This document shows positions 34,196-63,277 of a DNA stretch of 64,000 nucleotides, one piece after another. Location: contig CAZDOJ010000001.1 in the NCBI GenBank assembly GCA_964507055.1, positions 721,313-785,312 of the forward strand. Reading direction: 5' to 3'. The notes under the pieces were generated by a model. That model was not told where the DNA came from. It saw nothing but the letters and a program-made list of their open reading frames with translations, and made no database searches. The DNA comes from an uncultured Gammaproteobacteria bacterium (GTDB taxonomy: Bacteria > Patescibacteriota > Microgenomatia > Levybacterales > UBA12049). The position numbers and the translations under genes were made by a program. Each line of letters begins with the position of its first letter. Within the stretch, counting starts at the first letter, position 1.

Positions 34196-34224
34196 TTGAC
34201 AACAATATTATTATTTCATATATT
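34196..34224 (+). promoter_or_regulatory. sigma-70-type promoter of glnA (TTGACA-17-TATATT)
   Basis: TTGACA at 34196-34201, a 17-nt spacer, TATATT at 34219-34224, ATG at 34238. No SD in the short leader. Confidence 0.55.
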
Positions 34225-34237
34225 TAACTTAATAAGC

Positions 34238-35677
34238 ATGAATCCTACTCTTTCTTCACTTAAAACTTTTCTCGAACTCCCCTATGATCAACTTGAAGAG
34301 ATGAACCTTACAATCAAAGAAAAAGGCGACACTTTATCCGCAAAGGAATTTGAAAAAGAATACATAGCATATTTATTAAAAGAAAAGCGTATCAAAGCAA
34401 TCACTGTATGCTTCAGTGATATTGAAGGACGCTTTCACATGCTCGATTATGATAAAAAATTCCTCTTAGAATCTTTGGAGAATCTTACCTTTGATGGATC
34501 TTCTATTCGTGGATTCTCAGCCCAACATGAATCAGATCTCAGGCTTGATATTGATTGGCCGTCTATTCGATTTCTCCCAGCAGATGTTTTTGGGCTAGGT
34601 AAAGTTGTAGTCTTTGCATCAGTCCTCAACAGAGATCGTACCCCATATATTTCAGACTTTCGTGGGCAATTAAAGCTATATACTGAAGTGTTAAAAAAGA
34701 AACATGGGATCACTGCATATGGTGCACCTGAAATTGAAGGTTTTCTTGTGGACGGCATCCATGCAGAACAAGAATATGCTGCAAATGATGGATTTAAACT
34801 TATTTCAACAGGAGGATATTTCCACTCACTTCCACTTGATAAGCTTCGCCAATTCATCGATATGGCAGCTGAAGCACAGCGTGCAATGGGCTTCAGAAAT
34901 GAGAAAGACCATCCAGAAGTTGCACCATCACAATTTGAAATGAATTTTTCCTATACTGAAGTTTTACGTGCGGCCGATCAGATACAATTGTACAAACTTG
35001 TCTGTCGCCAAGTTGCAAGAAATCTTGGATTGACTGCAACATTCTTACCAAAACCTGTGATTGGAATTAATGGTTCAGGAATGCATACTAATTTTTCTCT
35101 TTCGAAAAATGGTAAAAATATTTTTTATGACGCAAAAGGACAAGATGGACTATCAACAATAGCATGGGATTATATCACCAGACTGTTAAATCATGCACCT
35201 GAAATTTGCCTAACACTAAACTCATCAGTAAATGCATATCGTCGACTTGATCCCCACTTCGAAGCACCGAATCAAATTAAAGTTTCCTCTTTAGATCGAG
35301 GGTCGATGATTCGAATACCTGTAGCAAATGAAAAAACTGCACGAATTGAAGTGAGATCTGTAGCACCTGATGCAAATCCGTACCTTGTTTTCTACACAAT
35401 CCTAAAGACAGGACAAGAAGGTACACCATTAAAAAAGAATGCAGTTCGTCGCGAACGAATGCGTTTCCTTCCTGATAATGTAAATGATGCGATCCGTATC
35501 TTTAAAGCAAGTAAGTTCATAACGAAAATTCTTGTAGAACAAAATCAGGATAAGTATGCAGCATTTAAGCAAGCAGCAGCAGACAGAAGTCCAAAAGCAT
35601 TAGGTACAATTGTGAAAGAATCAGAAGTAATTTATCACCATGAGGTAACCAATCAAGTCCTCTGGAATAATTTTTAA
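34238..35677 (+). CDS. glnA: glutamine synthetase
   Basis: PSQFEMNFSY, INGSGMHTNFSL, NAYRRL and ARIEVRSVAPDANPYL. Start moved from 34196 (which is the -35 box) to MNPTLSSL. Confidence 0.85.
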   Translation: MNPTLSSLKTFLELPYDQLEEMNLTIKEKGDTLSAKEFEKEYIAYLLKEKRIKAITVCFSDIEGRFHMLDYDKKFLLESLENLTFDGSSIRGFSAQHESDLRLDIDWPSIRFLPADVFGLGKVVVFASVLNRDRTPYISDFRGQLKLYTEVLKKKHGITAYGAPEIEGFLVDGIHAEQEYAANDGFKLISTGGYFHSLPLDKLRQFIDMAAEAQRAMGFRNEKDHPEVAPSQFEMNFSYTEVLRAADQIQLYKLVCRQVARNLGLTATFLPKPVIGINGSGMHTNFSLSKNGKNIFYDAKGQDGLSTIAWDYITRLLNHAPEICLTLNSSVNAYRRLDPHFEAPNQIKVSSLDRGSMIRIPVANEKTARIEVRSVAPDANPYLVFYTILKTGQEGTPLKKNAVRRERMRFLPDNVNDAIRIFKASKFITKILVEQNQDKYAAFKQAAADRSPKALGTIVKESEVIYHHEVTNQVLWNNF

Positions 35678-35720
35678 TCCTCAATAATCATACAAGGCTA
35701 ATAAGGTATAATGTTTTTGC

Positions 35721-36125
35721 ATGAAGAAAAACTATATTGATAAACTTGCTTATATCCTTGTTAGAAACCGCCGAGTGCTTGCGACCTTAAGCCGCGGAAA
35801 AGATACTTGGTTTTTACCTGGTGGGAAAAGGGAAGGAAATGAAACAGATATCCAAGCTTTAACGCGTGAAGTAAAAGAAGAACTTACAGTGGATATAATT
35901 GAAGATACTATCAAACCATATGGCGTTTTTGAAGCACAAGCACATGGCAAACCAGAAGGCACTATTGTCCGCATGACCTGTTATACAGCGAATTGTAGTG
36001 GGTTATTGCGTGCAAGTGCGGAGATTGAAAGAATAGATTTCCACTCCTATGCTGAAAGAGATATTTGCTCCACTGCAAGTAAACTCATTTATGATGATCT
36101 TAAAAAGAAAGATTTGATCGATTAA
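35721..36125 (+). CDS. NUDIX hydrolase
   Basis: Complete Nudix box GKREGNETDIQALTREVKEELTV (Gx5Ex7REUxEExGU). Confidence 0.85.
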   Translation: MKKNYIDKLAYILVRNRRVLATLSRGKDTWFLPGGKREGNETDIQALTREVKEELTVDIIEDTIKPYGVFEAQAHGKPEGTIVRMTCYTANCSGLLRASAEIERIDFHSYAERDICSTASKLIYDDLKKKDLID

Positions 36126-36126
36126 T

Positions 36127-37904: not shown

Positions 37905-37976
37905 GGCCCGTTCGTATATCGGTTAGTACACCAGGTTCTCATCCTGGGAAGAGGGTTTCGACTACCCTACGGGTCA
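37905..37976 (+). tRNA. tRNA-Glu (anticodon CUC)
   Basis: Hand-folded cloverleaf, 72 nt. Acceptor GGCCCGT/ACGGGTC (one G-U). D stem GTAT/GTAC with loop ATCGGTTA. Anticodon stem CCAGG/CCTGG with loop TTCTCAT. 4-nt variable region. T stem AGGGT/ACCCT with loop TTCGACT. Discriminator A; no encoded CCA. Confidence 0.85.
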
Positions 37977-38013
37977 CATTTCTTCAACGCTTCAAATTTG
38001 CTATAGTGGATAT

Positions 38014-38460
38014 ATGGTAAAGAAACATCTCAAAGATCACGGTAAGCATATCGATAAACGCCTCCGATTCCGTATCCGCATATATTTACTTATTTCCCTT
38101 ATACTGCTTGGCGTCCTGCTCTTTAATGTGATCCGAGGAGCATTGAGAATTGATTATGGTTTGCTGGGACTAATGGGAGGAACAGGCGTGGGTATTATTG
38201 CTTCACGAATGTTTCACACTTCATGGGATAGTAATGCAAAGAAAGTTATCAGTCGTATCGATACATTTGGTGTAGGAATCCTTTTGCTTTATATTGTTTT
38301 TGAAATTCTGCGTGAAGATATCGTAAAGATATTTACCGGTGACGTTCAAGTAGCGACGACTGGTTTTGCTGTTCTTGCAGGATTGATGCTTGGACAAGTG
38401 ATAGGTATGCGAGGGAAAATTATAGAGATATTAAAAGAACAAAAAGTTTTTGGTAGATAA
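38014..38460 (+). CDS. small membrane protein (3-4 TM), unknown function
   Basis: Hydrophobic segments IYLLISLILLGVLLF, GLLGLMGGTGVGIIA, GVGILLLYIVFEIL and FAVLAGLMLGQVIG. TGcTATAGT lies 6 nt upstream of the ATG. Confidence 0.6.
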   Translation: MVKKHLKDHGKHIDKRLRFRIRIYLLISLILLGVLLFNVIRGALRIDYGLLGLMGGTGVGIIASRMFHTSWDSNAKKVISRIDTFGVGILLLYIVFEILREDIVKIFTGDVQVATTGFAVLAGLMLGQVIGMRGKIIEILKEQKVFGR

Positions 38461-40047
38461 CTATTCTTGAGGTGCTTGATCCGGTGCACGCAGTTCACGC
38501 TTTTGTACGATAAAGTTACCAAACTTTTTCTCTTCAATCATAGTTGAAACAAGATTCTCTTCCTCAACACTGTGTTGAATCCAGTATTCATCAATTCCTT
38601 CTGGTGGTTCTATAATTAAATAACGCACTTTTGTTGTTTCAAGAGATTTTTGCATTGGCAGAAAGCTCAAATATCCAGCTTGATCTTTTCCCCAATAACT
38701 AGGAACATAATCATATTTTGGTTTTCCATATGTTTCAAAAAGATACGACCATGTTGTATTGATATAAAGAGGATTCGTAACTGTTGCTATAGCAAATGGC
38801 TCTTTCGCAGCACTTTGATAAACATATTCAAGAACCTGTCGTTCATAATATGTTGTCATTCCTTTTTGAATAGATAAGGGAGAATTCTGGTTACTCATCA
38901 GTGAATGAACAGAAAGAAACTGTATCGTACTTATAATGAGTAGCACTGCTGCAAGCACCCTCACATCTTTAATTAATTTTGTGAGAAAAATAGCAAAGAG
39001 TATTGCTAAAGGATAAAGGAACGGTGCATAGAAAAATAATATTAATAAATTACCTTTATTAAAGATAAATATAAATAGTATGCCTGTTAACCATATCAAC
39101 GAAAGCTTTGTAAGTTCATCAGTTTTTGTAAAAAGTGTTTTTCTGAAAACAATAAGTACAGATAAAACGATGAAAAAGCCAAGTAGTGCAGGCAATGGCA
39201 AATAGGTCAGCGATAGTAACTTCATCCCATGATCAATGAGAGAAACGACAGTCTGTCCCACTTGAATTTCATGAGCTCCCTTACCAAAAACAAAATCTGC
39301 GATAATCGCTATTACATTGGTTTTAAATTTAATGTACGTAACAAAGAACGGCAACAAGCCGATAATCAATCCACCAATGAGGGCGAGAGTATTTTTAAGA
39401 ATAAATGTTTGTTTAAATGCAAAATGATAAATAGGCAAAATAAATAATATGACAATGAATCCAAAATCTGATTGTATGAGTAACCCAAAGAAAAATCCTA
39501 TTAAAGCTGCTGTCAGTAGTGATTTCTTATGAATATATTTCCATAAAAAGTAAAAGAGCGGAGGTGTGATAAATAATGCTAAAACTGGATTTGATAGCCA
39601 TAATGCAAAGGAAATATAAAGAGGTGCCATTGCATACAATGCTGTTGAGACTGCTGCAACAGTGGTGCTTTGTGACATCTTTTTTGTCAGATACCACAAT
39701 AATGGTATAAAGGCATATAATCCTACAAGTAAAATCGTCAATGCATTTTCAGGTATTCCCTGCCCCAAAGCATAAATAACTGCTAAAAAGTAGTACCACA
39801 GTACTCCATGATTAATCCCAGGAATATCTGATGAAGGTCCTAAAATTTTAATATTATGATCGTGCCAAATTGAATATGCTTCATATGCATCTCGAGCTTG
39901 ATCATAGTAGAAAACTGTGTGAGTAGGAATGAGAGAGAAAGCGTAAAAGAACGAAATGAGGATTAAGAGTATAGCTAAGGCCGAAAGCATAAAGCCTTTC
40001 TTTTTGAACATATCACTTATTATAGTAGGGCAATTACGTAATAGCAA
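38461..40047 (-). CDS. polytopic membrane protein, putative GT-C-fold glycosyltransferase; distant paralog of 12480..14015
   Basis: FYYDQARDAYEAY...ILGPSSDIPGINHGVLWYYFLAV parallels WYDPARD...LIGPTSGIPGVFYGPYWIWFLSV. Multi-TM with a C-terminal soluble domain. The start may be MFKKKGF (40011). Confidence 0.45.
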   Translation of the reverse strand: MLLRNCPTIISDMFKKKGFMLSALAILLILISFFYAFSLIPTHTVFYYDQARDAYEAYSIWHDHNIKILGPSSDIPGINHGVLWYYFLAVIYALGQGIPENALTILLVGLYAFIPLLWYLTKKMSQSTTVAAVSTALYAMAPLYISFALWLSNPVLALFITPPLFYFLWKYIHKKSLLTAALIGFFFGLLIQSDFGFIVILFILPIYHFAFKQTFILKNTLALIGGLIIGLLPFFVTYIKFKTNVIAIIADFVFGKGAHEIQVGQTVVSLIDHGMKLLSLTYLPLPALLGFFIVLSVLIVFRKTLFTKTDELTKLSLIWLTGILFIFIFNKGNLLILFFYAPFLYPLAILFAIFLTKLIKDVRVLAAVLLIISTIQFLSVHSLMSNQNSPLSIQKGMTTYYERQVLEYVYQSAAKEPFAIATVTNPLYINTTWSYLFETYGKPKYDYVPSYWGKDQAGYLSFLPMQKSLETTKVRYLIIEPPEGIDEYWIQHSVEEENLVSTMIEEKKFGNFIVQKRELRAPDQAPQE

Positions 40048-40105
40048 TTAGAATTACATCATGGATTGTCTGGCAATAATCTTATATTTCATGCATAATA
40101 GGTTT

Positions 40106-40648
40106 ATGGCTGAGACAGAACATCAAAGAGTACATACACATAAAACAGCTTCGTATCACAAACGTCTTCACAGTCGGAGACATATCATCAAAAGCTTTAA
40201 AGCTGAAGCAAACGCGAAGAGAACCTTTTCAGAAAAGATAGCAGATACATTAACAGCAAGGCTTGGGACGATGGTCTTTCTTATCGTTAATGCTTTGTTC
40301 TTTATTACTTGGATCGCACTTCATATGGGGATTTTTCCTTACTCTGCACAGTTCGATCCTTATCCATTTAACTTCCTCACATTTGTGGTTTCGTTAGAGG
40401 CAATTTTTCTCGCAATTATTGTTTTGATCTCACAAAACCGATCAGCAAAGATTGATGAAATACGTGAAGAGACAGCACTGCAAATCAATACAATTGCTGA
40501 AGAAGAAATTTCTAAATTACTGGAACTACAGATTAAAATTTTGCAGAAACAAGGAGTTGATCTTTCAAAAGATCCTGAAATTCGAGAGATGCTAGAACCG
40601 ACGTCACCTGAAGAAATAGAAAAAGCTCTCGAAAAAGAAAATCAATAA
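40106..40648 (+). CDS. DUF1003 domain-containing membrane protein
   Basis: FSEKIADTLTARLGTMVFLIVNALFFITWI...DPYPFNFLTFVVSLEAIFLAIIVLISQNR is the DUF1003 core. Start taken at MAETEH, preceded by a -10-like TGCATAAT. Confidence 0.75.
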   Translation: MAETEHQRVHTHKTASYHKRLHSRRHIIKSFKAEANAKRTFSEKIADTLTARLGTMVFLIVNALFFITWIALHMGIFPYSAQFDPYPFNFLTFVVSLEAIFLAIIVLISQNRSAKIDEIREETALQINTIAEEEISKLLELQIKILQKQGVDLSKDPEIREMLEPTSPEEIEKALEKENQ

Positions 40649-41123: not shown

Positions 41124-43062
41124 TTCTTTTGAACTTTCTTTTAATTGTAGTTGCACTACTGATGATTATAATAGACACAACAGCAAAAACAAAGCCAGGA
41201 TCTGTAACGACATATATAATTCTATTTAAAAGTAATATATATGGTTTTTGAAGTAATTCTAACTTTGGTTGAGAATACACTGTAACCAAACTTGTTGATG
41301 AAGTATCAACAAAAAGTTCTTCTGAATTATTCACTCTCTTTGACGAAAGTTCTAAGACATAGTCTTTCCCTTTTGCATCAACAATAACTGGAATCCCAAA
41401 CCCAAAGAAGGGAGATCCTTCAGCAGTATTCGCATCGCGAGTGTATGTTGCAATTTCTTTATTTTTACCATCCAACAACCTAATAGTAAATTTAGACAAA
41501 CTACCACGTTCTAGATTCTCTGAAGGATGTTCCTGGGCATAACGCAAACGAATATATATAGCACTGAGATCTTGATCTTTTGCTTTAAAGGGTATCCGTA
41601 AAGCTTTTTCACTTACCTGTAATTCTGATGTTTGAGCGGTGATTGGATGTCGTGATAGTAGTAAAGTGGGAGAAAAACTACCAGAATACAAATAAAATAT
41701 AATGGCAATACTACAAAAAGCAGTAACTACAACTCTACGTGTTGAAAATGATTGTGAAGCTTTTCTGACTTTTTCTTTTGAAGAAGCGAGTGTCGTTTCA
41801 AGTAAGTCTCTCTTGCTTTTGAAATATAATCGCTCGATGAAATAAAATAAGTAACTTGCTACTGCTACTCCCAAAATGATCATCAGGAAAAATACAAATG
41901 TATCGTTAAGATTTGGGAAACTCATTGTTGCTTTATTTACCCATTCAATAATATGAGTATGAGAAAGATACAAAGAATAACTAATTAACCCAAGAAATAC
42001 TAACATTTTAGTACTAAAAATTTTATAAGAAAGCGTTTTAGGAACAATTGCCGAAGCAATGAGTAAAGCAATAATCCAACTTGAGACAAGATAGTAATAG
42101 TTCATGAATACGATACTTTGTCCATGACGAATATGTGTATCTCCCCATTGAAGTCCTACAAATAAGAGTAATATAAAAATTACAGAGAAAGGATTACTAA
42201 CAAATGGTAAAAGCTTTTGCCAAATTTTTCCATTGCTTTGATAAATAGTACCAAGAACAACCCCCGCAACAAACCCACTTGCTCGTGCAATATTCATACT
42301 TTGCAGACCCGCAAATGGAACTATCGCGTAATCTAAATTAAAAAGAATTATTGTAACTGCAGCAATGCACAGAACCGAGAAAAATATTCCAAGCTTTTTA
42401 CAAACATAAATCAAAGGAATAACAATAAAAGGATAGACTACATAAAATAAAACTTCAGGAGCCAAACTCCAAACCACACCACTCAACCGTAGAATATCTT
42501 TTGCAAAAGGCGTCGTCAATGTAAGATTTGAAAGTAAAGTTAGTATGTTTGTAATATCAGTTGCTCCTGGGTTCGCAAAGAAGCGAGGAGTAATGAAGAT
42601 ATTGAGAAAGACCAGTATTATCTGCAAACTAACAAATCCAAAAAAAAGTACCTTCCCAATATATCTTGAAACCATAGATGCTTTGAACAATTTCCACAGA
42701 AAAAATACACCTAAGGCAGTTCCTAAGAATATAAGTGCTTGCAAATAATATGGACTTCCTTTGATTTGTGAAATAAGCCAAAGAGAAGTAATTACAACAC
42801 CTAAAATTGGAAAAATACGTGCATAGCGTTTTTGAATATACTTCCATGTAACGGGTATCGACGGGTACAAAAAAGCCATAAGAAAACCTGACAAAACGAA
42901 AAGTATTTGGACAGAATTTGGCCCTACAGCAAGGGTTTGATAAGCGGTGATAATAATAGGATTCGGTATAAATAATGAGGGAGAATAACCAGTATGAGAA
43001 AGTAGTACGGCGAATGCAGCAAATCCTCGCAATCCATCAAGTGCAGGCAATCTTGTTTTCAC
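41113..43062 (-). CDS. acyltransferase family 3 (OafA/YrhL-like O-acyltransferase) with extra C-terminal domain
   Basis: LPALDGLRGFAAFAVLLSH and about 10 TM helices. These are followed by a ~200-aa non-SGNH soluble domain and a terminal TM helix. Confidence 0.8.
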   Translation of the reverse strand: MKTRLPALDGLRGFAAFAVLLSHTGYSPSLFIPNPIIITAYQTLAVGPNSVQILFVLSGFLMAFLYPSIPVTWKYIQKRYARIFPILGVVITSLWLISQIKGSPYYLQALIFLGTALGVFFLWKLFKASMVSRYIGKVLFFGFVSLQIILVFLNIFITPRFFANPGATDITNILTLLSNLTLTTPFAKDILRLSGVVWSLAPEVLFYVVYPFIVIPLIYVCKKLGIFFSVLCIAAVTIILFNLDYAIVPFAGLQSMNIARASGFVAGVVLGTIYQSNGKIWQKLLPFVSNPFSVIFILLLFVGLQWGDTHIRHGQSIVFMNYYYLVSSWIIALLIASAIVPKTLSYKIFSTKMLVFLGLISYSLYLSHTHIIEWVNKATMSFPNLNDTFVFFLMIILGVAVASYLFYFIERLYFKSKRDLLETTLASSKEKVRKASQSFSTRRVVVTAFCSIAIIFYLYSGSFSPTLLLSRHPITAQTSELQVSEKALRIPFKAKDQDLSAIYIRLRYAQEHPSENLERGSLSKFTIRLLDGKNKEIATYTRDANTAEGSPFFGFGIPVIVDAKGKDYVLELSSKRVNNSEELFVDTSSTSLVTVYSQPKLELLQKPYILLLNRIIYVVTDPGFVFAVVSIIIISSATTIKRKFKRNDL

Positions 43063-43079
43063 AACTCTATTATACAGAT

Positions 43080-44128: not shown

Positions 44129-44397
44129 TTGCTGTTACGTTTAAAAAGTTTTACCAGCTCTTCAGTCGCTTTTTCCGGTTCGTTTTTGAATTGCTCTTTA
44201 ATATGTGTCGTTAAATGTCGTTCAAAAAGTACTGTGTCTAAACTTCGGAGCGAACTTTGTATAGCAAGACTTTGATTAAGCAGATCCATACAATATTCAT
44301 CATTATCAATCATTTTCTGCAAACCATCGAGTTGGCCCTTGATAATATTAATCCGCTTTTGTGCATGAACTTTGACATCTTCGTAATGTGATTTCAT
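44125..44397 (-). CDS. CsoR/RcnR-family metal-sensing transcriptional repressor
   Basis: INIIKGQLDGLQKMIDNDEYCMDLLNQSLAIQSSL. Ligand positions are Cys36, His61 and His65 (RHLTTHI), plus His4. Confidence 0.9.
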   Translation of the reverse strand: MKSHYEDVKVHAQKRINIIKGQLDGLQKMIDNDEYCMDLLNQSLAIQSSLRSLDTVLFERHLTTHIKEQFKNEPEKATEELVKLFKRNSK

Positions 44398-44403
44398 AAA
44401 TTT

Positions 44404-44432
44404 ATGATATACCCCTAGGGGGTATATGTCAA
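44404..44432 (-). promoter_or_regulatory. promoter of the metal operon: TTGACA-17-TATCAT, spacer filled by the operator; ATG 6 nt after the -10
   Basis: Minus strand reads TTGACAtataccccctaggggtaTATCATaaatttATG. The -35 is at 44427-44432 and the -10 at 44404-44409. Confidence 0.7.
44407..44427. promoter_or_regulatory. CsoR-type operator, perfect palindrome ATATACCCC-TAG-GGGGTATAT
   Basis: 9-bp perfect inverted repeat with a 3-nt centre. G/C tracts flanked by AT-rich arms are the known CsoR-family operator style. Confidence 0.75.
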
Positions 44433-44460
44433 GAGAACACTAGGAGTATAATAGTAAAAA

Positions 44461-46867: not shown

Positions 46868-46895
46868 TCAAACTCTTCAAATGATATAATTATGT

Positions 46896-51968: not shown

Positions 51969-52016
51969 AATATTTTTTTTGATTTACCGACTTTTTGTGG
52001 TTGTCTGCAAATCGTA

Positions 52017-52050
52017 TTAGCAATCTATCATAGATTCTGCTAATTGTCAA
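52017..52050 (-). promoter_or_regulatory. lon promoter (TTGACA-17-TAGATT) overlapped by a CIRCE-like palindrome
   Basis: Plus strand 52017-52043 reads TTAGCAATC-TATCATAGA-TTCTGCTAA, versus CIRCE TTAGCACTC-N9-GAGTGCTAA. On the minus strand the -35 is at 52045-52050 and the -10 at 52022-52027. Confidence 0.4.
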
Positions 52051-53134: not shown

Positions 53135-53158
53135 AATAAAAAATTAATTATTTTCAAC

Positions 53159-53198
53159 GGAGCAAGATGTATCAACAATGGTCAACACATCTTGCTCC
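53159..53198 (-). terminator. 12-bp perfect hairpin between the small peptide gene and sortase (partial terminator/attenuator candidate)
   Basis: GGAGCAAGATGT (53159-53170) pairs with ACATCTTGCTCC (53187-53198) around a 16-nt loop. The T-run is not directly adjacent to the stem. Confidence 0.4.
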
Positions 53199-53237
53199 AT
53201 ATTTTTAAACGACATATTAGTTTAACTAATATAAAGC

Positions 53238-53420
53238 TTAGTAAGCTCTGTTACCAGTTGCTGGTGCTTCACTTGGCATAGCTGCACTAGTTGTTGGTGT
53301 TACAGTTGTCGTGTTGTTTGTTGTGTTTGTAGGTGTTGCTGTTTGTGCAAATGTCATTGTTGCCGCTGCCATTGCTGAAACTGCGAATACACCTGTTGCG
53401 ATTACTGCTTTTTTGATCAT
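53238..53420 (-). CDS. small secreted Thr-rich peptide (60 aa)
   Basis: Strong SD GGGAGGTGAgtatATG. Signal peptide MIKKAVIATGVFAVSAMAAATMTFA|Q. Mature part QTATPTNTTNNTTTVTPTTSAAMPSEAPATGNRAY. Confidence 0.65.
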   Translation of the reverse strand: MIKKAVIATGVFAVSAMAAATMTFAQTATPTNTTNNTTTVTPTTSAAMPSEAPATGNRAY

Positions 53421-53824
53421 ATACTCACCTCCCTTCGTGCAATTGAATTACTCTTTATATTTTAAAGCTCATTGAGTAGAAGCTTTATCGACCCATCAAT
53501 AAACTGATGAGGAACGATTAATTCATCCTAACATACTTTTTATTTTGCCGTCAACCGCATAGCTATTTTCTTACATCTAAAAGTACCTGACTCTTTAAAT
53601 ATTCATACATTAAGATAAGCTTTTTACATAAAATCGACTAATATTTTGAGCTCTGTCATCTTGATAATTACATAAAGTTAAGAAAAAGTAGCTCAACATT
53701 TCTTTCTGATTCCTTACAAGATTTTGGTTAATCTCTTATTGTTAAGCATTATCCTAACTGGTGTATACAGAAAAAACTTTAGAACACATTTTAAATAGTT
53801 TTTAGGAAAGGAGGTGAATACACA

Positions 53825-54010
53825 ATGGCTAAAACAATGAAAAAAGGAAAAGGCAGAGGTTTTGCTTCAATGAGCAAAGATAAACAGCGCGAAATCGCAA
53901 GTAAAGGTGGTCGTGCTGCGCATATCAAAGGCACTGCCCACAAATGGACAAGTGAGGAAGCTCGAAAAGCCGGTCAACTCGGTGGTCGTGCTCGCCAAAA
54001 GAAGTCCTAA
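53825..54010 (+). CDS. KGG-repeat stress-induced protein
   Basis: SKGGRAAH and GQLGGRAR repeats. SD GGAAAGGAGGTGA lies 8 nt upstream. Confidence 0.7.
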   Translation: MAKTMKKGKGRGFASMSKDKQREIASKGGRAAHIKGTAHKWTSEEARKAGQLGGRARQKKS

Positions 54011-54101
54011 TGGAATTCGGATTCTCGACCGTTATAGACGAGAAGCGAACTAGGTTCGCAAACTTACTGCCCAATGCAGAGGAAGGAGGTGAAAAGTTTT
54101 T

Positions 54102-54353
54102 ATGAATATTTTATCTTGGTTAATCTTTGGAACTATTGTAGGTATTGTCGCTAATGCTATTGACCCTGCACCTAATAGAGGCGGAATATTTGGTTCAATT
54201 TTATTAGGAATTGTTGGAGCACTCGTTGGCGGATTCCTAGCAAATCTCATATTCGGAATAACGGTGACCGGATTTAACGTAACATCATTCTTAGTCGCAA
54301 TTGCTGGATCATTGCTATTACTCTTTGTCGGCAAAGCAATGCGAAGAGCCTAG
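54102..54353 (+). CDS. GlsB/YeaQ/YmgE-family stress-response membrane protein
   Basis: ILSWLIFGTIVGIVANAIDP...GGIFGSILLGIVGALVGGFL. SD GGAAGGAGGTGA. Confidence 0.85.
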   Translation: MNILSWLIFGTIVGIVANAIDPAPNRGGIFGSILLGIVGALVGGFLANLIFGITVTGFNVTSFLVAIAGSLLLLFVGKAMRRA

Positions 54354-54383
54354 GATATGATACGAAATATATACGGGAGTATG

Positions 54384-54425
54384 AGCAATCCCAAAATTTA
54401 TAGATAAAAGAATATTGGGATTGCT
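54384..54425 (+). terminator. 11-bp perfect hairpin downstream of the GlsB-like gene (terminator candidate, no U-tract)
   Basis: AGCAATCCCAA (54384-54394) pairs with TTGGGATTGCT (54415-54425) around a 20-nt loop. Confidence 0.3.
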
Positions 54426-54483
54426 TCTCTCGTAAATTAAGGATAAAAATAATTAATTTATTTTTGAAAGGAGGTGAAAAAAC

Positions 54484-54795
54484 ATGCAACTTATGCAAAA
54501 TCAACAAAAGAAAAATAATAAACCAATAAGCCCTATTGCTGCCGGTATTACAGGCGTAGTTATCGGGGCAGCGGGAGCAGCTGCAATTGCTTTATCAGAT
54601 AAAGAAACTCGTAAAAAAGCGACTGGTAAAGCGATGAAAGTAAAAGAAGATCTTCATAAATGGAGTTCTAAAACTATTAAAGATATGCAAACTCACGGAG
54701 AAAAAGTCAAAGCGAGTTCTAAAGACGCAATCGATAATAATAAAGAAACAGTCTCAAAACAATTAAAAGATAAAATTGATGAGACATTTAAATAA
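54484..54795 (+). CDS. YtxH-like general stress protein
   Basis: N-terminal Gly/Ala-rich helix PIAAGITGVVIGAAGAAAIALSDKETRKKA followed by a charged coiled region. SD GAAAGGAGGTGA. Confidence 0.5.
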   Translation: MQLMQNQQKKNNKPISPIAAGITGVVIGAAGAAAIALSDKETRKKATGKAMKVKEDLHKWSSKTIKDMQTHGEKVKASSKDAIDNNKETVSKQLKDKIDETFK

Positions 54796-55541: not shown

Positions 55542-55670
55542 AATCTTAGAATAATATATATAATAGCCATATGCTTTGATAGAAAAATGTGTATCATGTA
55601 AGAATATATTAAGAAACGGCTATAGACTCTTTGTGAATCCCTCATAATTTGGTAAGATTACCTGTATAAA

Positions 55671-56843
55671 ATGAAAAATGATATTTTGGAGCAGATTTAT
55701 CTGACTTCTCTGGATCTTCTTAACGCTAATTCAGCAAAGAAACTAGAATCGACAATCGTAGAATCATCAAAAAAATTGAGCGGAGCGGCTTATGCTCAGC
55801 TTTACTTCAACCAAAAAGACCGATTAAAGAAAATCTATAGCTCTGATGCCGAGATCAAAAAAAGTACGATGGTGAAAATGCCTGGATTTAAGAAATATGC
55901 TCTTAAACATAGTATCGCTACAGTTCCACAAGATGTTCTTAAAACGTGGAATATTGACCATATGCCACCGAATATTCATGCGATTACTGTGATCCCACTG
56001 CTACACAAAGATAATCCTCTGGGATTTCTTGTCCTATTTTTTATTGAGAAAACAGACCTAAGCGAAGAAACGAAAAAAGCCCTTCTTACACTAAGCCAAA
56101 CAGCAGTTCTTGCGATAACAAAATCACGAATTCAGGAGGAATCCAAAAAAGCATTGGAAATACGAGATAGATTTATTTCGCTTGCTTCACATGAACTACG
56201 AACACCTTTGACTTCTTTACATGGATACATCCAATTGCTCCATGCAAGAATGTCAGGAAAAGAATCTGTTGAAGCACGGTGGATAAACGAATTACATATT
56301 GAGAGCATACGATTAACAACTTTAGTAAAAGAATTGCTCGATGTTAATAGAATCAAACAAGGTCAGTTTGCTTTCGTCTTTAGTGAGGTCCCTATGCAAG
56401 AGGTTGTTGAGAAAGCAATTGAACACTATCGATTAACTAGTGCAGATCATCCTATTACTTTCCAGAATAAACTGGAAGATGATGGCAAAGTCGTAGGAGA
56501 TTTCGATAAGCTGGTTGAAATGGTTTCAGGTCTATTAGGAAACGCGATAAAATTTTCAAAGCCACAAGAAAAGATAGCCATTCTACTGAAAAGTACTCAG
56601 GGAATGCTTTCATTAACGGTAAAAGATACTGGAAAAGGTATAAGTAAGAAGGACCTTGCAGCTGTCTTTGATGGGTTTTATAAAAGTTCTCACGCAAGCC
56701 ACCTAGAAGGTATGGGCGTCGGATTACTTTTAGCAAAGCATATCGTTGAGAATCATAGAGGGAAAATCAAAATCACTTCAAAAGAAAATAAGGGAACAAA
56801 AGTGGAAATTACATTACCGACGATTAAGGCTACTCCCCTTTAA
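55671..56843 (+). CDS. soluble sensor histidine kinase (GAF-like N-domain + HisKA + HATPase_c)
   Basis: H-box SLASHELRTPLTSL, N-box LLGNAIKFS, G1 VKDTGKGI, G2 GMGVGL. No TM segment. Confidence 0.9.
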   Translation: MKNDILEQIYLTSLDLLNANSAKKLESTIVESSKKLSGAAYAQLYFNQKDRLKKIYSSDAEIKKSTMVKMPGFKKYALKHSIATVPQDVLKTWNIDHMPPNIHAITVIPLLHKDNPLGFLVLFFIEKTDLSEETKKALLTLSQTAVLAITKSRIQEESKKALEIRDRFISLASHELRTPLTSLHGYIQLLHARMSGKESVEARWINELHIESIRLTTLVKELLDVNRIKQGQFAFVFSEVPMQEVVEKAIEHYRLTSADHPITFQNKLEDDGKVVGDFDKLVEMVSGLLGNAIKFSKPQEKIAILLKSTQGMLSLTVKDTGKGISKKDLAAVFDGFYKSSHASHLEGMGVGLLLAKHIVENHRGKIKITSKENKGTKVEITLPTIKATPL

Positions 56844-58421: not shown

Positions 58422-59076
58422 AACCAAAGCCACGAACAGAGTGCAGTAGCTTTTTCTCAGAATCTGAATCTACTTTCTTTCGGAGATATCCCATGTAGAC
58501 ATCGACGACACGGGTTTCAACATCACTTGAGTATAACCAGATTCGGGAAAGAATCATTTCTCGAGTAAGGATACGACCTTTGTTACTCATTAAATATTGC
58601 AATAATTTAAATTCCTGTGGAGTTAATTGGATTTGCTTGCCACTTCTTTTTACTTCCATTGTCTTTGAATCTAGTTCTAAATCTGCAACTTTCAAAACAG
58701 CTTCATTACTAACTTGTTTTCTGAGTCGGGCTTTAATACGAGCGAGAAATTCATCAGCGACAAATGGCTTTGTCATATAATCATCTGCACCAAGGTTTAA
58801 TCCTTCAACAATATCGTTAATTGAGTCTTTTGCTGTAAGAATGATTATTGGGAGGTCTTTATACTTCTTACGAATTTCGCGAGTAACTGCTTCACCTGAC
58901 ATAACTGGAAGTCCAAGATCCATAACTACTAAATCAGGTTCAGTTTTTTTGAAGTAATCTAAGGCTGCGATACCATCAGAAACAGTATGCACGGAGTATC
59001 CGTTATCAAGAAGTAATTCTTTAAGATATTTTTGCAATCCACGGTCGTCTTCGACCACTAATATTGTTTGCATCAT
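58405..59076 (-). CDS. OmpR/PhoB-family response regulator
   Basis: ILVVEDDRGL, DLVVMDLGLP, KPF, and winged helix LTPQEFKLLQYL...GFGYVI. Start trimmed to MMQTIL, with TGcTATAAT 10 nt upstream. Confidence 0.9.
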   Translation of the reverse strand: MMQTILVVEDDRGLQKYLKELLLDNGYSVHTVSDGIAALDYFKKTEPDLVVMDLGLPVMSGEAVTREIRKKYKDLPIIILTAKDSINDIVEGLNLGADDYMTKPFVADEFLARIKARLRKQVSNEAVLKVADLELDSKTMEVKRSGKQIQLTPQEFKLLQYLMSNKGRILTREMILSRIWLYSSDVETRVVDVYMGYLRKKVDSDSEKKLLHSVRGFGYVIKE

Positions 59077-59147
59077 AACTCGTGCCATTATAGCAACAAA
59101 TGTAAGAACGCACAACTCATAAAATAGCGTATGTAAAAAATTTCAAG

Positions 59148-60377
59148 TTAGAGAGATTTTCGTGGCCCATCTTCCGGCCCATCTTCTTCACCTGACCAAT
59201 CAACTTCTCCTCCCAATGAATCAAGGGGAGAGTCGTCTGAATCCAATGGAGGCATAGAAGGTGGCGGCGTTTTAGGAGCTTCATGTGTAATCCACACACC
59301 CATTGGATCAAAGCCAGTTACCTCAGCAGTTCGTTGATCAATAGTTAATGGATCTCGGAGATCTGCAATATAGTATTCGACTCCCAATAGACTTGGATCT
59401 GTTACTTTATATCCTAAAATTTCACTTACTTGGTCAACAACTTTTTGGGTTGCTGTAGCCCGAGCTTCCACAATCTCTTCGGCAGTTGGATCCTCTTTGC
59501 CAGCTAGGGCATCAGTTGTGAAAGCATCAATTTCCAGCTGCCAACGAGACTGTGCAGCTGCTATATTTTCTTTGACTGGTTGTGCATACATTTCCAATTC
59601 TTGAGCATTGGCACGCAATCCTTTTGTTTTGTCTATATATTCTCGAATTGCTTCACGCTCCAAATCTTGTCCTACAGTAGCTTCTCGCATTATTCGTGCA
59701 GCTTGTACACTATCGAATGCTTCTGCATACTTTCCACGTTCGAAATCGCCAAAAAATGTATCCATTCGCTCTCTAAGTCCTTCTGGATCAGTCATCCCTA
59801 CTCTATAAAAAATGGGACCGAGATTTCCATTACTATGGATCTTTTCCCCTGTAATAATACTGACTCTTTTTAGGACTTCTTCTTGTGCTCTTGAGTTGGC
59901 CTCAAATGGTGGATGATATTGCGAGTACCTATTAACAAGAGTTGTATGTTCTTCCTCAAACAGAAACTGAACAGCCTCAATATGACTTACGACCCCATAT
60001 CTAAAATCGGAATATTCGTTTACTTCATGTATACCGTCACTCGTGTGAGAGGGATCTCTGTGGTATCTTTCCCGAAATAATTGTAGGGTTATTTCATCCC
60101 GATGTTGGGTGAATGATTTTTCATCACGACCCTCTGAATAAGTATTTGGATGTTTCGAAGGTCTCTGATGTATATCATGGGTAAAAAGTTGTATCCCGGG
60201 ATCCCTAGGATCTATCATTCCTTTATCCAGCCATTCTTCCTGGGCAATTTCTTGGGCACGACGTGCGTATCTGCCACGGAATGTGAACCGTGAGGTTGCT
60301 TTAAAAGTTTCCCATCGTTCGCGGAAACCTTGTTTGGGTTGATCTGGTCTACCTGGTTGTGATTCTGGGTTTTTCAT
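59148..60377 (-). CDS. acidic soluble protein of unknown function carrying the C-terminal VDWSG-DGPE tail
   Basis: 409-aa ORF with no TM segment and no motif I recognise. The C-terminus DSDDSPLDSLGGEVDWSGEEDGPEDGPRKSL matches the tail of the upstream gene. Confidence 0.6.
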   Translation of the reverse strand: MKNPESQPGRPDQPKQGFRERWETFKATSRFTFRGRYARRAQEIAQEEWLDKGMIDPRDPGIQLFTHDIHQRPSKHPNTYSEGRDEKSFTQHRDEITLQLFRERYHRDPSHTSDGIHEVNEYSDFRYGVVSHIEAVQFLFEEEHTTLVNRYSQYHPPFEANSRAQEEVLKRVSIITGEKIHSNGNLGPIFYRVGMTDPEGLRERMDTFFGDFERGKYAEAFDSVQAARIMREATVGQDLEREAIREYIDKTKGLRANAQELEMYAQPVKENIAAAQSRWQLEIDAFTTDALAGKEDPTAEEIVEARATATQKVVDQVSEILGYKVTDPSLLGVEYYIADLRDPLTIDQRTAEVTGFDPMGVWITHEAPKTPPPSMPPLDSDDSPLDSLGGEVDWSGEEDGPEDGPRKSL

Positions 60378-60385
60378 AAAGAGTC

Positions 60386-60414
60386 ATTATAATCGAAAGA
60401 TTAGGCACAAGCAA
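60386..60414 (-). promoter_or_regulatory. promoter TTGCTT-17-TATAAT, ATG 8 nt after the -10 (leaderless-type)
   Basis: Minus strand reads TTGCTTgtgcctaatctttcgatTATAATgactctttATG. Confidence 0.55.
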
Positions 60415-60437
60415 GTCTACAGTAAATATCTTATAGA

Positions 60438-63239
60438 TTACAGTGTCTTTTGCTGATCTGTTTCTGGACCATCATTGTCGCCAGACCAGTCCACACCAGA
60501 ATTTAACTCCTCCAATGAGATATCATCTTCAGAGAATTGCGGACGATCTTCACCTGATTGACCAGCGTGAGGAGTAGAACCTGGAAGTTTCTTTTCAAGA
60601 AGACCTTCTTTTTGCAGTGATCGGACAATCTTCCTTGTTTCATTAAATGTAAGCCCGGTAATTGTTGCTATTTCGTCCAATGTAGCATGAGGTCGTAACT
60701 GTATAATCTGATCTCGTTGTCGTTGTTGTGCTTCAAGAACTTCCTCTGTTGGAGAAGTATCTATTCCTTTCTTATCGAGAATAGCTTTTGCATCGTATAA
60801 GGATTCCAATGGATAATTGGTCTCTTCATGTATCTGTTTAATTGACTTACCAGCACGTAAACCGATAATCAGTGCTTCACGACGATCATTTCTCACAACA
60901 TCACTTGTATCTTGCCAGTTCACAACATACCCATAATCACCTGCCTCGGTCAACCTTCGAGCAATATTTTCTTCACTAAGATAGACCGTTCTTGAAATAT
61001 CTTTTATTCGGCTTCCTTCGTTATAAAGAGTAATAACCTCATCGTATCGATCACGTATTTCCTCAGCGGTTCGACCCTGAAGATCTGTAGGAATTTGAGA
61101 TAGTACTGTATCTACCATTGGCTTTATAAGTTCCCATGAAACCCTATCTTGCACTTTACTTGCATAGGTACTCCATGCATGACGCATAGATCTTGCATCG
61201 CTTTCTTGATCATCCATATGCGGTGCAAAAATCTCAGCAACTCTTGCTAAGGAGTATGGACTGCCGAAAGGATCTTCATTACCTGCTTGTGATTCAACTG
61301 TTGTAAAGTATGTTTGCTTGAGAGTGGAGAGATCAGTTCTTGAAAGATCCATTCGGCTGAGTAATTCTTCGGCAGCATCTCTTCGGTCAACAGACCAAGC
61401 AGCGTCATTTCCAATTCCCCGAATTAACCGAGCAGCAAGATCTGTGGATTGGTCTGGAGTTAGTTCATTCATAGCAGCCATTGCTTCTGCTCTTACAGTG
61501 GTCCATTCAGCAGGATCACTGTGATAAAACTTCCACAGGTGGTTATCACCTAAATATTTTTCTATTATTTGCACTTGAGGATCAAGTTCATCAGGCCGGA
61601 GTAGTTTTATTTCACCCTTCGCGAGTGCACGTATCGATTCAAGATCACCCTCCACCTTTAAAGCATCTGCGTGGATCAGATGTTCCATCAGATCATCGAC
61701 ACGTCCCATACTTTTATCCCAAGTAGTTGATCCCATACTATTCAAATTAACAGCTCTTACCCATGTATCTCTGATATCCCAAAGCCCTTGGGTATCTGTT
61801 TGCAATACTTCAGCAAGGATAGTTCCTGACTGCAATAGAAGATTTGGATCGGAGGTATTACTCTGATTTTCTACTGCCCATAAATACCGCTCGGTCAATA
61901 CATTAGAATCTAAGCCTTCAAGATCTACCCCTCTTAAAAGCTGTAAAGCAACGTATTTTGCATTCCCCTCTCTCCCCATTTTGCTAATGAGAGCTCTAGT
62001 AAACCACGTTCTTTCTTTTGTGTTTAATCTATTTATATCGTGCACTGCACCTTTGTATTCGTCACTTGCAGTTCGGCGATCAAGAAATCTCTTATACTGA
62101 CTGGCAAACAATCTATATTCCAAAGTTGCGGCATTAAACTCAGTCCTTTTTTCTTCAGCTTCGTTCGTTTCTGGTACTTCAGGGACTTCACCACCTTGTT
62201 GTACCCAATAATCCAGTATATGTTCATCTGTACTTAACTTTTGTAAAGTATTTTTATACACACGTCTAACAGTCATCGAAGAGATACCCATTCTTTCCGC
62301 TATTATCTCTTGTGTTACACCATCTTTGAAAACCGCTTCAAGAATATCCCGCTCTCGTTCTGTTAAACTCTCAGTCACAGTATCAAATACGTTATGAACA
62401 TCAACTGGTGTAGCCATAGACCTAGTAAGATATTCCTCTACTGTATCCTCTGGTACTACTCCTATTTCCTTAAAAATCATTCCAATGGCGGTTTGTATAT
62501 GTAAATCAATTGGCTGAGAATCCATCGTACTGAGATGTTCAGCAATAGCTTGTCTTGTAGGCATTTCTCCGTGTTGCTCGAAATAATTATTAGCAAATGA
62601 ATAGCCCTCCAGATAAACTAACTGAGCAATTCTGGGAATTCTAATCTCATCATCTTGTTGAACTCGTGCCTCAAAAATTGCACTTCTTACTCTTCTTGTA
62701 GCATATTGATAATAATCTACGCCTGAATCAGGATCATAGTCATCGAGTACATTGGTAAGCTCTGCTAGTCCTTCTTGAAACCTATCTTCAATTGTCATAT
62801 GCTTTGTGGTATGCCTTCGGGCAGGTCCAAGGATAATACCGAGACTACAGTTTAAAAGAAGTTGTGATACAGAATTACTCTCTGTAATTACTGCCTCGAA
62901 TTCCTGTTGAAATTTATTACTATTTTCTGGTGTATTGGTTCCAAAGGCTTCATTCGTTTGAATATCTGACAGTAACTCTGTACGCTGCGTATGCATTTGC
63001 TTTCGTGCTGAGGGTGTAGGATTCTCATTATAGTTATTGACTATAGATTTTTCTTGTGTGTATGCTCGAAACAAAACTGACCATTGACGCTGTGACAATT
63101 TCTGAGGATACCGAATAATTTTATTCCAGTAATCTGCATGCAAAGAAATGCTCCCAGCACCTTCTTCACGGGCTCTGTCAGCATATTCTTCTTCCCTAAA
63201 TCGGCGAGCAACCGCACCAGGTCTATTTCTCTCTGTCAT
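60438..63239 (-). CDS. sigma-70-family-like protein with ~570-aa C-terminal extension (internal repeats, three extra HTH modules, acidic VDWSG-DGPE tail)
   Basis: Region 2-like EDRFQEGLAELTNVLDDYDPDSGVDYYQYATRRVRSAI. Region 3-like IRIPRIAQLV...GEMPTRQAIAEHL. Region 4 LTERERDILEAVFKDGVTQEIIAERMGISSMTVRRVYKNTLQKL. Three further HTH-like units precede the tail. Confidence 0.65.
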   Translation of the reverse strand: MTERNRPGAVARRFREEEYADRAREEGAGSISLHADYWNKIIRYPQKLSQRQWSVLFRAYTQEKSIVNNYNENPTPSARKQMHTQRTELLSDIQTNEAFGTNTPENSNKFQQEFEAVITESNSVSQLLLNCSLGIILGPARRHTTKHMTIEDRFQEGLAELTNVLDDYDPDSGVDYYQYATRRVRSAIFEARVQQDDEIRIPRIAQLVYLEGYSFANNYFEQHGEMPTRQAIAEHLSTMDSQPIDLHIQTAIGMIFKEIGVVPEDTVEEYLTRSMATPVDVHNVFDTVTESLTERERDILEAVFKDGVTQEIIAERMGISSMTVRRVYKNTLQKLSTDEHILDYWVQQGGEVPEVPETNEAEEKRTEFNAATLEYRLFASQYKRFLDRRTASDEYKGAVHDINRLNTKERTWFTRALISKMGREGNAKYVALQLLRGVDLEGLDSNVLTERYLWAVENQSNTSDPNLLLQSGTILAEVLQTDTQGLWDIRDTWVRAVNLNSMGSTTWDKSMGRVDDLMEHLIHADALKVEGDLESIRALAKGEIKLLRPDELDPQVQIIEKYLGDNHLWKFYHSDPAEWTTVRAEAMAAMNELTPDQSTDLAARLIRGIGNDAAWSVDRRDAAEELLSRMDLSRTDLSTLKQTYFTTVESQAGNEDPFGSPYSLARVAEIFAPHMDDQESDARSMRHAWSTYASKVQDRVSWELIKPMVDTVLSQIPTDLQGRTAEEIRDRYDEVITLYNEGSRIKDISRTVYLSEENIARRLTEAGDYGYVVNWQDTSDVVRNDRREALIIGLRAGKSIKQIHEETNYPLESLYDAKAILDKKGIDTSPTEEVLEAQQRQRDQIIQLRPHATLDEIATITGLTFNETRKIVRSLQKEGLLEKKLPGSTPHAGQSGEDRPQFSEDDISLEELNSGVDWSGDNDGPETDQQKTL

Positions 63240-63248
63240 AATCGAATG

Positions 63249-63277
63249 ATTATACTCCTGTTCTTCATCAAACTCAA
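63249..63277 (-). promoter_or_regulatory. promoter TTGAGT-17-TATAAT, ATG 9 nt after the -10 (leaderless-type)
   Basis: Minus strand reads TTGAGTttgatgaagaacaggagTATAATcattcgattATG. Confidence 0.55.

Follow-up and report, generated by a model that had tools for sequence, protein, structure and literature searches.

Candidate promoters at leaderless or near-leaderless distance from start codons, and a small Shine-Dalgarno-led gene set, in a 64-kb Levybacteria window and its relatives

How is translation started in a genome in which many start codons follow almost directly on a promoter-like hexamer? The question is raised by the window analysed here, a stretch of 64,000 nucleotides (nt) with a guanine plus cytosine (GC) content of 35%. 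A first-pass annotation of the window had pointed to ten genes in which a TATAAT-like -10 hexamer ends 5 to 10 nt before the start codon and to four genes with a perfect Shine-Dalgarno (SD) sequence, and had proposed that the organism relies heavily on leaderless initiation and reserves strong SDs for a small set. We found that hexamer position, in the window and across related loci, argues for leaderless or near-leaderless expression of a large share of transcription units, a reading that we regard as likely. For about one third of the genes, the assigned promoter is near enough to the start codon to predict an mRNA with little or no leader.

Promoter-like sequence as such is uninformative in this window. 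Loose sigma-70 matches occur at chance level (70 against 70.9 expected in one scan, 51 against 49 in another), and generic sigma-70 and terminator scans, with counts at chance, are no evidence by themselves. Strict hexamers, defined by at least five of six matches to TATAAT with A2 and T6 fixed, number 1165 on the two strands. Yet 16 of the 52 window genes have one that ends 5 to 10 nt before the ATG, against 5.0±2.1 in shuffled upstream regions (maximum of 13 in 300), and the other 6-nt offset bins hold 3 to 9 genes with a strict hexamer. The signal in the window is the position of the hexamer relative to start codons, not its abundance. The spacings thus differ from those of shuffled AT-rich upstream sequence, which is the comparison that the first-pass annotation had put forward.

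Relatives were collected around the window lon gene (49599-51968, minus strand), whose Lon protease has 80 relatives in species-representative genomes, mostly labelled Levybacteria, Levyibacteriota, Microgenomates or Patescibacteria. The closest (98% identity) is on OZ246394.1, a 1.61-Mb chromosome. Judged by these matches, the window organism is a member of Candidatus Levybacteria within the Candidate Phyla Radiation (CPR)/Patescibacteria. Long open reading frames (ORFs) of the window called under table 11 give normal Pfam matches, and TGA behaves as a stop codon. The window and the 80 Lon loci form the main pooled set, with 1071 genes in 552 protein families, 428 of them singletons.

In this pooled set, the hexamer lies exactly 6 nt before the ATG in 133 of 1071 genes, against about 15 per other offset, with a shoulder at 7 to 10 nt. 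With one gene per family, spacing 6 is found in 80 of 552 genes against about 7.5 per other offset, and the excess over background at offsets 5 to 10 amounts to 25% of all genes. No peak appears at offsets 18 to 30, so the profile gives no sign of an archaeal-type TATA box, which would lie about 23-26 nt before start codons. The leaderless-type fraction is 38% among first-in-operon-like genes and 18% among operon-internal genes (those that follow a gene on the same strand by less than 30 nt), an incomplete separation of the two. Genes with spacing 6 also favour T at -15 (65%) and at -17, as well as G at -14 (53%), with TT weakly preferred at -35/-34; none of these was selected for. By their sequence, these unselected bases are an extended -10 grammar, and this "-16 region" grammar is familiar from low-GC Gram-positive promoters.

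The peak is also present when annotation is left aside and the codon at each offset from a strict hexamer in the loci is counted, provided that it begins an ORF of 80 codons or more. ATG is found 179 times at spacing 6, 101 times at spacing 7, and about 50 times elsewhere. Counts of GTG are 45 at spacing 6 and about 18 elsewhere; neither TTG nor CTG has a peak. A peak for ATG and GTG but not TTG fits a purine +1 that is the first base of the start codon, not a ribosome-binding element. Because a spacing of 6 to the A of ATG is the canonical distance from -10 to +1, it places the predicted transcription start at the start codon.

A second set of loci, fetched from metagenomes around relatives of the window glnA gene (L084-L163; GC 33-73%, many phyla), was divided into 18 loci with GC of at most 0.42 (184 genes) and the remaining loci as contrast. 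The low-GC loci have spacing 6 in 17 of 184 genes against about 3.5 elsewhere, and an SD in 7.6%, whereas the mid- and high-GC glnA loci have no spacing-6 peak and more SD. A weaker version of the peak is present in the more distant Microgenomates of the Lon set (Roizmanbacteria, Gottesmanbacteria). The GlnA relatives share 61-82% identity with the window enzyme and lie on contigs of 33-73% GC, and this type of glnA, common to very different phyla, may reflect horizontal transfer or strong conservation.

Within the window, reading of the upstream regions recovered all ten hexamers of the first-pass annotation, with spacings of +5 to +10, and also the two boxes that it gave as TTGACA-17-TATATT (34196-34224, glnA) and TTGACA-17-TATACT (63527-63555). 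The close -10 arrangement spans the whole window, also outside 34-63 kb. The sites are as follows, with spacing as the nt between hexamer and start codon.

35707-35723, plus strand: NUDIX gene, ATG 35721; TATAAT (35707-35712), spacing 8.
37999-38016, plus strand: 148-amino-acid (aa) gene, ATG 38014; extended -10 TGcTATAGT, spacing 6.
40094-40108, plus strand: DUF1003 gene, ATG 40106 (MAETEH...); CATAAT, spacing 6.
40009-40047, minus strand: ~516-aa gene (ORF 38461-40011), ATG 40011; TTGCTA-17-TATAAT (hexamer 40019-40024), spacing 7; absent from the first-pass list.
44395-44432, minus strand: csoR-like repressor, ATG 44397; TTGACA(44427-44432)-17-TATCAT(44404-44409), spacing 6.
44447-44463, plus strand: AlkZ-like gene, ATG 44461; TATAAT, spacing 8.
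46882-46898, plus strand: gene with ATG 46896; TGaTATAAT, spacing 5 (+5 in the orthologue of locus L055, +9 in that of L008).
49515-49531, minus strand: gene with ATG 49517; TGaTATAAA, spacing 8.
59074-59095, minus strand: OmpR-type response regulator, ATG 59076; TGcTATAAT, spacing 10.
60375-60391, minus strand: 409-aa gene with no family match, ATG 60377; TATAAT, spacing 8.
63237-63277, minus strand: 933-aa sigma-70-family protein, ATG 63239; TTGAGT-17-TATAAT (63249-63254), spacing 9.
34196-34240, plus strand: glnA, ATG 34238; TTGACA-17-TATATT, spacing 13, predicted leader ~7 nt.
63527-63574, plus strand: ORF at ATG 63572, cut by the window end; TTGACA-17-TATACT, spacing 16, predicted leader ~10 nt.
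34085-34099, minus strand: GT2 glycosyltransferase, GTG 34087; TGgTATAAT, spacing 6; outside the first-pass list.
43060-43074, minus strand: acyltransferase, GTG 43062; TATAAT, spacing 6.
22003-22017, minus strand: GT1 glycosyltransferase, GTG 22005; TGaTACAAT, spacing 6.
29452-29467, minus strand: PMT_2-type glycosyltransferase, ATG 29454; TATAAT, spacing 7.
12432-12452, minus strand: epimerase, ATG 12434; TGcTAGAAT, spacing 9.
11394-11416, minus strand: epimerase, ATG 11396; TGcTACAAT, spacing 11.
8054-8071, minus strand: gene with ATG 8056; TGcTATACT, spacing 6.
48441-48480, minus strand: Na/Ca exchanger, ATG 48443; TTGTCT-17-TATACT, spacing 8.
55650-55673, plus strand: histidine kinase, ATG 55671; TGgTAAGAT, spacing 12; motif and spacing kept in orthologues.

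The hexamer of the gene at 49517 (TATAAA) lacks the invariant final T, and its L055 orthologue reads TACAAT at +6. The label "GH18-like" given earlier to the ORF at 63572 found no support in Pfam, which has no match in the 142-aa fragment. A repeated sequence that the first-pass annotation had listed, AGGAGTATAAT, is without signal: it has 3 copies in ~1.33 Mb (window and loci, both strands) and is missing at the orthologous site of the 98% relative, and since it is rare and not kept there, the recurrence looks coincidental.

Orthologues keep these arrangements family by family. Whether a gene is of the leaderless type depends on its family (chi-square 150 across 28 families; under permutation, the mean is 27 and the maximum 56), and 78% of the PMT_2-type family is of that type across loci. 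The DUF1003 family has gGTTGACA-N17-TACAAT-N6-ATG in many species. Its closest member begins MAETEH, which fixes the window start at 40106, as the first-pass annotation had proposed, rather than at 40061. The orthologues of the genes at 44461, 46896, and 49517 retain a proximal -10 despite differing sequences, and the histidine-kinase family keeps TGgTAAGAT-N11/12. Spacing 6 is the mode of the lineage, whereas the OmpR-type regulator family (MTQTILVVEDD) stays at +10/11 with TGtTATAAT-N10/11-ATG, from which a conserved leader of 4-5 nt is predicted at 59076.

The start codons themselves are anchored in several ways. Pfam boundaries fix the starts of the epimerases (match from residue 3), GT2 (residue 7), and the response regulator (residue 5 from 59076), and in GlnA homologues the alignment begins at residues 1-8 of the product read from 34238. 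A hidden downstream start led by an SD is present in 5.6% of leaderless-type and 5.9% of other genes, hence without excess. The start codons of two divergent pairs are only 63 nt (44397-/44461+) and 94 nt (40011-/40106+) apart, and gaps so short can hardly accommodate leaders, unless a promoter is located within the adjacent gene. The longest-ORF rule is misled by the same architecture: TTG 34196, which opens the longest glnA ORF, and TTG 40047, which opens that of the ~516-aa gene, are -35 boxes that become false starts, and 13-15 false residues are added at 40061 and 59115. Gene finders that assume an SD will misplace start codons in such genomes.

About 60% of the genes in the window and loci have neither a proximal -10 nor an SD. 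The two regimes of the first-pass annotation therefore give way to three classes, the largest of which carries neither signal; its only feature is an A-rich stretch at -4 to -2. Operon-internal genes belong to it: overlapping or abutting stop and start codons are found in the glycosyltransferase cluster of the window (14-34 kb, minus strand) and in several other gene pairs. A leadered example without an SD is lon itself.

51966-52050, minus strand: lon promoter TTGACA-17-TAGATT (52050-52022), 53 nt to ATG 51968, no SD.

The SD class is small. An SD match of at least 5 nt at 3-15 nt before the start is present in 7.4% of the genes in the window and loci, and in only 7-10% of the genes that remain once the leaderless type is set aside. 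SD 4-mers reach 13.6% overall (11.2% at a control offset) and 20% in internal genes (control 18%), which is barely above background. Near starts, GGAGGT (9 against 0), AGGAGG, and AAGGAG are enriched, and these k-mers imply a canonical anti-SD; the 16S rRNA 3' end expected for this class is ...GAUCACCUCCUUU-3'. In the window, GGAGGTGA stands 6-9 nt before the ATG of the four genes for which it had been reported, and these are its only copies in 64 kb on both strands (0.78 expected), all within 53425-54477.

53418-53432, minus strand: SD GGAGGTGA (53425-53432), ATG 53420; Thr-rich 60-aa signal-peptide protein adjoining a sortase gene.
53810-53827, plus strand: SD GGAGGTGA, ATG 53825; KGG/GsiB-like, 61 aa.
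54085-54104, plus strand: SD GGAGGTGA, ATG 54102; Transgly_assoc/YmgE-like, 83 aa.
54470-54486, plus strand: SD GGAGGTGA, ATG 54484; weak YtxH-like match, 103 aa.

Across loci and window, 49 of 70 copies of GGAGGTGA lie 4-11 nt before a start codon. The products of these 49 genes have a median length of 83 aa, and 37 are at most 110 aa long. Orthologues of the four window genes keep the SD as follows.

KGG/GsiB-like: 9 of 12 with SD; two of the misses read GGGGGTG.
Transgly_assoc/YmgE-like: 7 of 11.
YtxH-like: 5 of 6.
Thr-rich signal-peptide protein beside the sortase gene: 7 of 8.

Other carriers, identified by sequence reading without a family scan, are RRM-type RNA-binding, small membrane, and putative general-stress proteins. 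From this distribution, the perfect SD is, as far as sequence can tell, a conserved, gene-specific trait of a small, mostly stress-type gene set, and the gene content points to conditional or stress functions rather than housekeeping. The proposal that strong SDs are reserved for a few genes thus stood in so far as they are confined to small stress-type genes of the same families across species. Two enolase genes (L029, L038) have no SD, and one has TATAAT at +12. For Bacillus subtilis gsiB, a passage in PMC7509114 credits to Juergen 1998 that a strong ribosome-binding site stabilises the mRNA, and by analogy the strong SD may plausibly also protect the mRNA 5' end in this gene set.

The scheme that best accounts for these three classes is the following. 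At a housekeeping sigma-70-type promoter, RNA polymerase would start at the A or G of the start codon or 1-5 nt before it; the candidate promoters of the leaderless class have a strong -10, often extended to TnTGnTATAAT, and a weak or absent -35. The resulting leaderless mRNAs, unable to use SD pairing, would be initiated from the 5'-terminal AUG or GUG by a 70S/IF2-type pathway, as is established for E. coli, mycobacteria, and Deinococcus. Pairing of SD and anti-SD would survive with few users, where an 8-10 nt near-perfect SD (GAAAGGAGGTGA) would give strong 30S recruitment on small leadered stress-type genes. The third and largest class would presumably rely on stop/start coupling and on A-rich unstructured upstream sequence. 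In this scheme the motifs are observed, with their positions, statistics and conservation, and the transcription starts, the route of initiation and the level of expression are inferred.

Several other explanations have to be weighed. TATAAT-like hexamers are everywhere at 35% GC, and those near an ATG might simply have been picked out, as the chance-level loose sigma-70 matches and the 1165 strict hexamers of the window would allow. Such fortuity does not explain why hexamers in the window are enriched by position, why a tenfold peak stands at exactly 6 nt even with each family counted once, why an extended -10 TG co-occurs unselected, why the pattern returns in a second, separately fetched locus set, or why spacings are kept within orthologue families. 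The positional statistics effectively refute chance, to which we assign a negligible weight. On a reading at the mRNA level, the AT-rich hexamer is a non-SD enhancer that binds the ribosome or S1 in transcripts with leaders, a mechanism put forward for SD-poor phyla. In its favour, the SD is nearly unused, so some non-SD mechanism must exist, and the genes with neither signal are A-rich at -4 to -2. We nevertheless hold it to be very unlikely, because the hexamer comes with the full promoter grammar TnTGnTATAAT and, in some families, with TTGACA exactly 17 nt upstream, and because its modal spacing equals the canonical distance from -10 to the transcription start. A ribosome site would also be expected at first and internal genes alike, whereas the hexamer is about twice as frequent at the former, and the peak for ATG and GTG without one for TTG matches the expectation for a purine +1 and not for a ribosome site.

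It is somewhat less improbable, though still unlikely, that the proximal -10 boxes are real but secondary, with the main transcripts coming from upstream promoters through SD-less leaders and the leaderless ones a minor product. Leadered SD-less genes do exist, as lon with 53 nt between -10 and ATG illustrates, and the 18% of operon-internal genes with a proximal -10 imply mixed transcripts; the divergent gaps of 63 and 94 nt, on the other hand, leave little room for other promoters, no second positional peak lies further upstream, and the exact spacing is kept across species. As to the four SD-led genes, they lie within ~1.05 kb, and KGG/GsiB, YtxH, and YmgE are typical general-stress genes in Firmicutes, which would suit an island recently acquired from an SD user such as a Firmicute, its SDs being foreign baggage. 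Against this origin, the same families with the same extended SD are syntenic across Levybacteria loci with Lon down to ~75% identity, and unrelated small genes elsewhere in the loci bear the same octamer; we consider the island highly improbable.

Leaderless or near-leaderless expression, the reading that we prefer, has its own weak points, and the following count against it. Transcription starts are placed by the canonical distance from -10 to start, and leaders of 1-5 nt are equally compatible with the spacings. The commonest spacing inside the window is 8, not 6, and window spacings of +8 to +10 could mean leaders of 1-4 nt instead of none. A T at -1 failed as a signature of the transcription start site, as it is present in about 50% of every class, including the neither-signal and operon-internal genes. 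Genes were called naively, from the first ATG of every ORF of 100 aa or more, and any single promoter-like site could be fortuitous, loose matches being at chance level in AT-rich DNA. Additional upstream promoters could possibly give leadered transcripts, since leadered SD-less genes exist. Neither the window nor any fetched locus holds a 16S rRNA gene or its 3' end, so the anti-SD is read only through the SD consensus, and a motif search of the loci for EF-Tu, EF-G, GroEL, DnaK, RpoB, and others returned the two enolase genes only. What remains of the claim of heavy leaderless use is that many promoters lie at leaderless or near-leaderless distance, lineage-wide and kept family by family.

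Among known systems, the closest is "group C" of GeneMarkS-2, in which a Pribnow box lies 6-8 nt before the starts of operon-first genes and 25-50% of operons are predicted to be leaderless; its members are mainly Actinobacteria and Deinococcus, e.g., Mycobacterium tuberculosis and Deinococcus deserti (PMC6028130). MetaGeneMark-2 found almost all code-11 group C genomes to be high-GC and added low-GC, code-4 Mycoplasma, whose reduced genomes have 30-60% of genes predicted leaderless (10.1101/2022.07.25.500264). Levybacteria resemble group C in a -10 motif localised ~6-10 nt before starts, in the use of both ATG and GTG, and in the preference of the motif for first genes (38% against 18%). They share low GC with Mycoplasma but differ from it in phylum and genetic code, TGA being a stop codon here. 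Unlike in group C, where the remaining genes carry an SD, GC is 35% and the SD is present on only ~7% of genes; its scarcity on the remaining genes is the main departure from the Actinobacteria/Deinococcus pattern. By its positional feature, which is the defining one, the lineage fits the known leaderless-rich type, and it is unusual in its low GC and near-absent SD. The SD-poor Bacteroidetes ("group B") reportedly retain the anti-SD, use it rarely, and keep a strong SD on a few genes. Levybacteria are alike in the rarity of the SD, in a consensus that implies a canonical anti-SD, and in the A-rich sequence just upstream of starts in the neither-signal class, but their TATAAT promoter is found mainly at first genes and is depleted at internal ones rather than being a motif of all genes, and no TAnnTTTG-type promoter was seen. 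The KGG gene resembles B. subtilis gsiB as a KGG-motif stress protein with a near-perfect SD and a leadered mRNA, beside YtxH-like and YmgE-like genes; an SD is on almost every gene in Bacillus and is the exception in Levybacteria.

Literature searches returned no paper that ties leaderless mRNAs to CPR, Patescibacteria, Saccharibacteria, or Microgenomates (a transcription start site paper on TM7x, PMID 35975994, lay outside their coverage). A survey of CPR ribosomes found reduced anti-SD motif detection only in a Parcubacteria subgroup, and reported (PMC9297842) that every CPR lineage lacks uL30 and that most Microgenomates lack bL9. A CPR lineage that is low in GC and poor in SD widens the range over which leaderless-rich genomes are known, and a concrete promoter set and a small SD-led gene set are now on hand for Levybacteria. 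This prompts the question of whether CPR ribosomes, in their reduced form, are adapted to leaderless initiation.

The SD-led KGG gene is preceded by a conserved box.

53700-53738, plus strand: TTCTTnC-N5-TCCTTAC-N15-CTCTTA, 5' of the KGG gene with its SD; a candidate site for a regulator or an alternative sigma factor.

In its fuller form, tTCTTgC-N5-TCCTTAC-N3-aTTTT-N7-TCTCTTA, the box lies 30-75 nt upstream of the KGG/GsiB-like SD and contains three CTT-containing repeats ~11 and 21 nt apart. It is also found in loci L004, L005, L006, L008 (two copies), L009, L022, L026, L035, L055, L068, and L069, and L008 and L035 have it in front of YmgE-like and general-stress genes as well. The box may be bound by a response regulator or serve as a promoter for an alternative sigma factor. 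A sigma-54 or SigB-type promoter was rejected, as there is no TGGCAC at -24 and no GTTT/GGGTAT; the SigB consensus is GTTTaa-N12-15-GGGtAt, which TCCTTAC-N15-CTCTTA does not resemble. A related sequence, TTCTTACA, immediately precedes the -10 box of the OmpR-type regulator gene nearby (59076, minus strand). The gene for the 933-aa sigma-like protein (60438-63239, minus strand) adjoins the two-component system and the stress-gene cluster. Its sigma-70-family domain (residues ~100-336; TIGR02937, 69.5 bits) is nearest to SigB/F/G models and is flanked by an unmatched N-terminus of ~100 aa and a C-terminal extension of ~600 aa with weak helix-turn-helix matches.

A more far-reaching scheme, which we think doubtful, would have SD:anti-SD pairing in Levybacteria kept only for a translational regulon of its own. 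The mRNAs of housekeeping genes would be leaderless or SD-less, and a conserved set of small stress or dormancy proteins would have a maximal SD on long leaders, some behind the TCCTTAC-N15-CTCTTA box. Once growth ceases, the cell could switch its translation globally between a leaderless (70S-type) and an SD-dependent (30S-type) mode. On this equally doubtful scheme, the GsiB-like, YmgE-like, YtxH-like, and RRM-type proteins and the sortase-linked peptide would be members, and the switch might be linked to the reduced CPR ribosome.

Further observations concern the neighbourhoods of these promoters. In the promoter of the CsoR/RcnR-family repressor (PF02583), the spacer from TTGACA to TATCAT is occupied by the palindrome ATACCCCTAGGGGGTAT (44409-44425), which also overlaps the divergent AlkZ-like promoter. 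The repressor gene is followed by DUF305 and DUF4396 genes, and the palindrome has the look of an operator of the CsoR type in a metal (copper?) operon under autoregulation. An inverted repeat, TTAGCA-N15-TGCTAA (~52015-52045, minus strand), overlaps the lon promoter and is conserved in most Lon loci; compared with the HrcA operator CIRCE (TTAGCACTC-N9-GAGTGCTAA), its outer arms and spacing are alike and its inner arms degenerate. An Rfam scan of the window gave no family at its gathering score. ARAGORN found a single tRNA, tRNA-Glu(CTC) (37905-37977, plus strand), which ends 22 nt 5' of the extended -10 TGcTATAGT of the gene at 38014.

The 60-aa Thr-rich protein (53238-53420, minus strand) carries a signal peptide and is rich in Thr in its middle part; ...APATG(R/N) is conserved close to its C terminus. 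Its gene lies directly upstream of the sortase gene (52526-53134). The protein may be a sortase substrate that lacks the usual hydrophobic tail. The stretch before the gene (53421-53554) holds a conserved promoter, TTGACG-18-TGtTAGGAT (53554-53525), and a ~95-nt leader with a hairpin. Upstream of sortase genes (~53140-53200, minus strand; L008, L011, L014, L018, L019, L068), a conserved hairpin-like element is followed by CATCTTGCTCC (e.g., atgcgttaac...gttaatgcatcttgct), with no -10 or SD near the ATG.

Many public metagenome-assembled genome (MAG) records titled "uncultured Gammaproteobacteria" (L007, L009, L013, L015, L021, L055, and others) are clearly Levybacteria by Lon identity and neighbourhood, and the complete chromosome OZ246394.1 bears the same title. 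Further Levybacteria-like MAGs carry Limnocylindrales, Methylomirabilota, Eisenbacteria, or Sulfotelmatobacter labels. The taxonomic labels on such records are probably wrong. An identical Lon protein is present on metagenome contigs of SRR14271336, SRR14271343, and SRR14271346.

Finally, the minus strand at 14000-34100 holds a long same-strand run of glycosyltransferase-type genes (GT1, GT2, GT87, PMT_2), many with stop/start overlaps of 1-29 nt; the same strand carries two epimerase genes (10428-12434) farther downstream. By its gene content, the run looks like a large cell-envelope glycosylation cluster.

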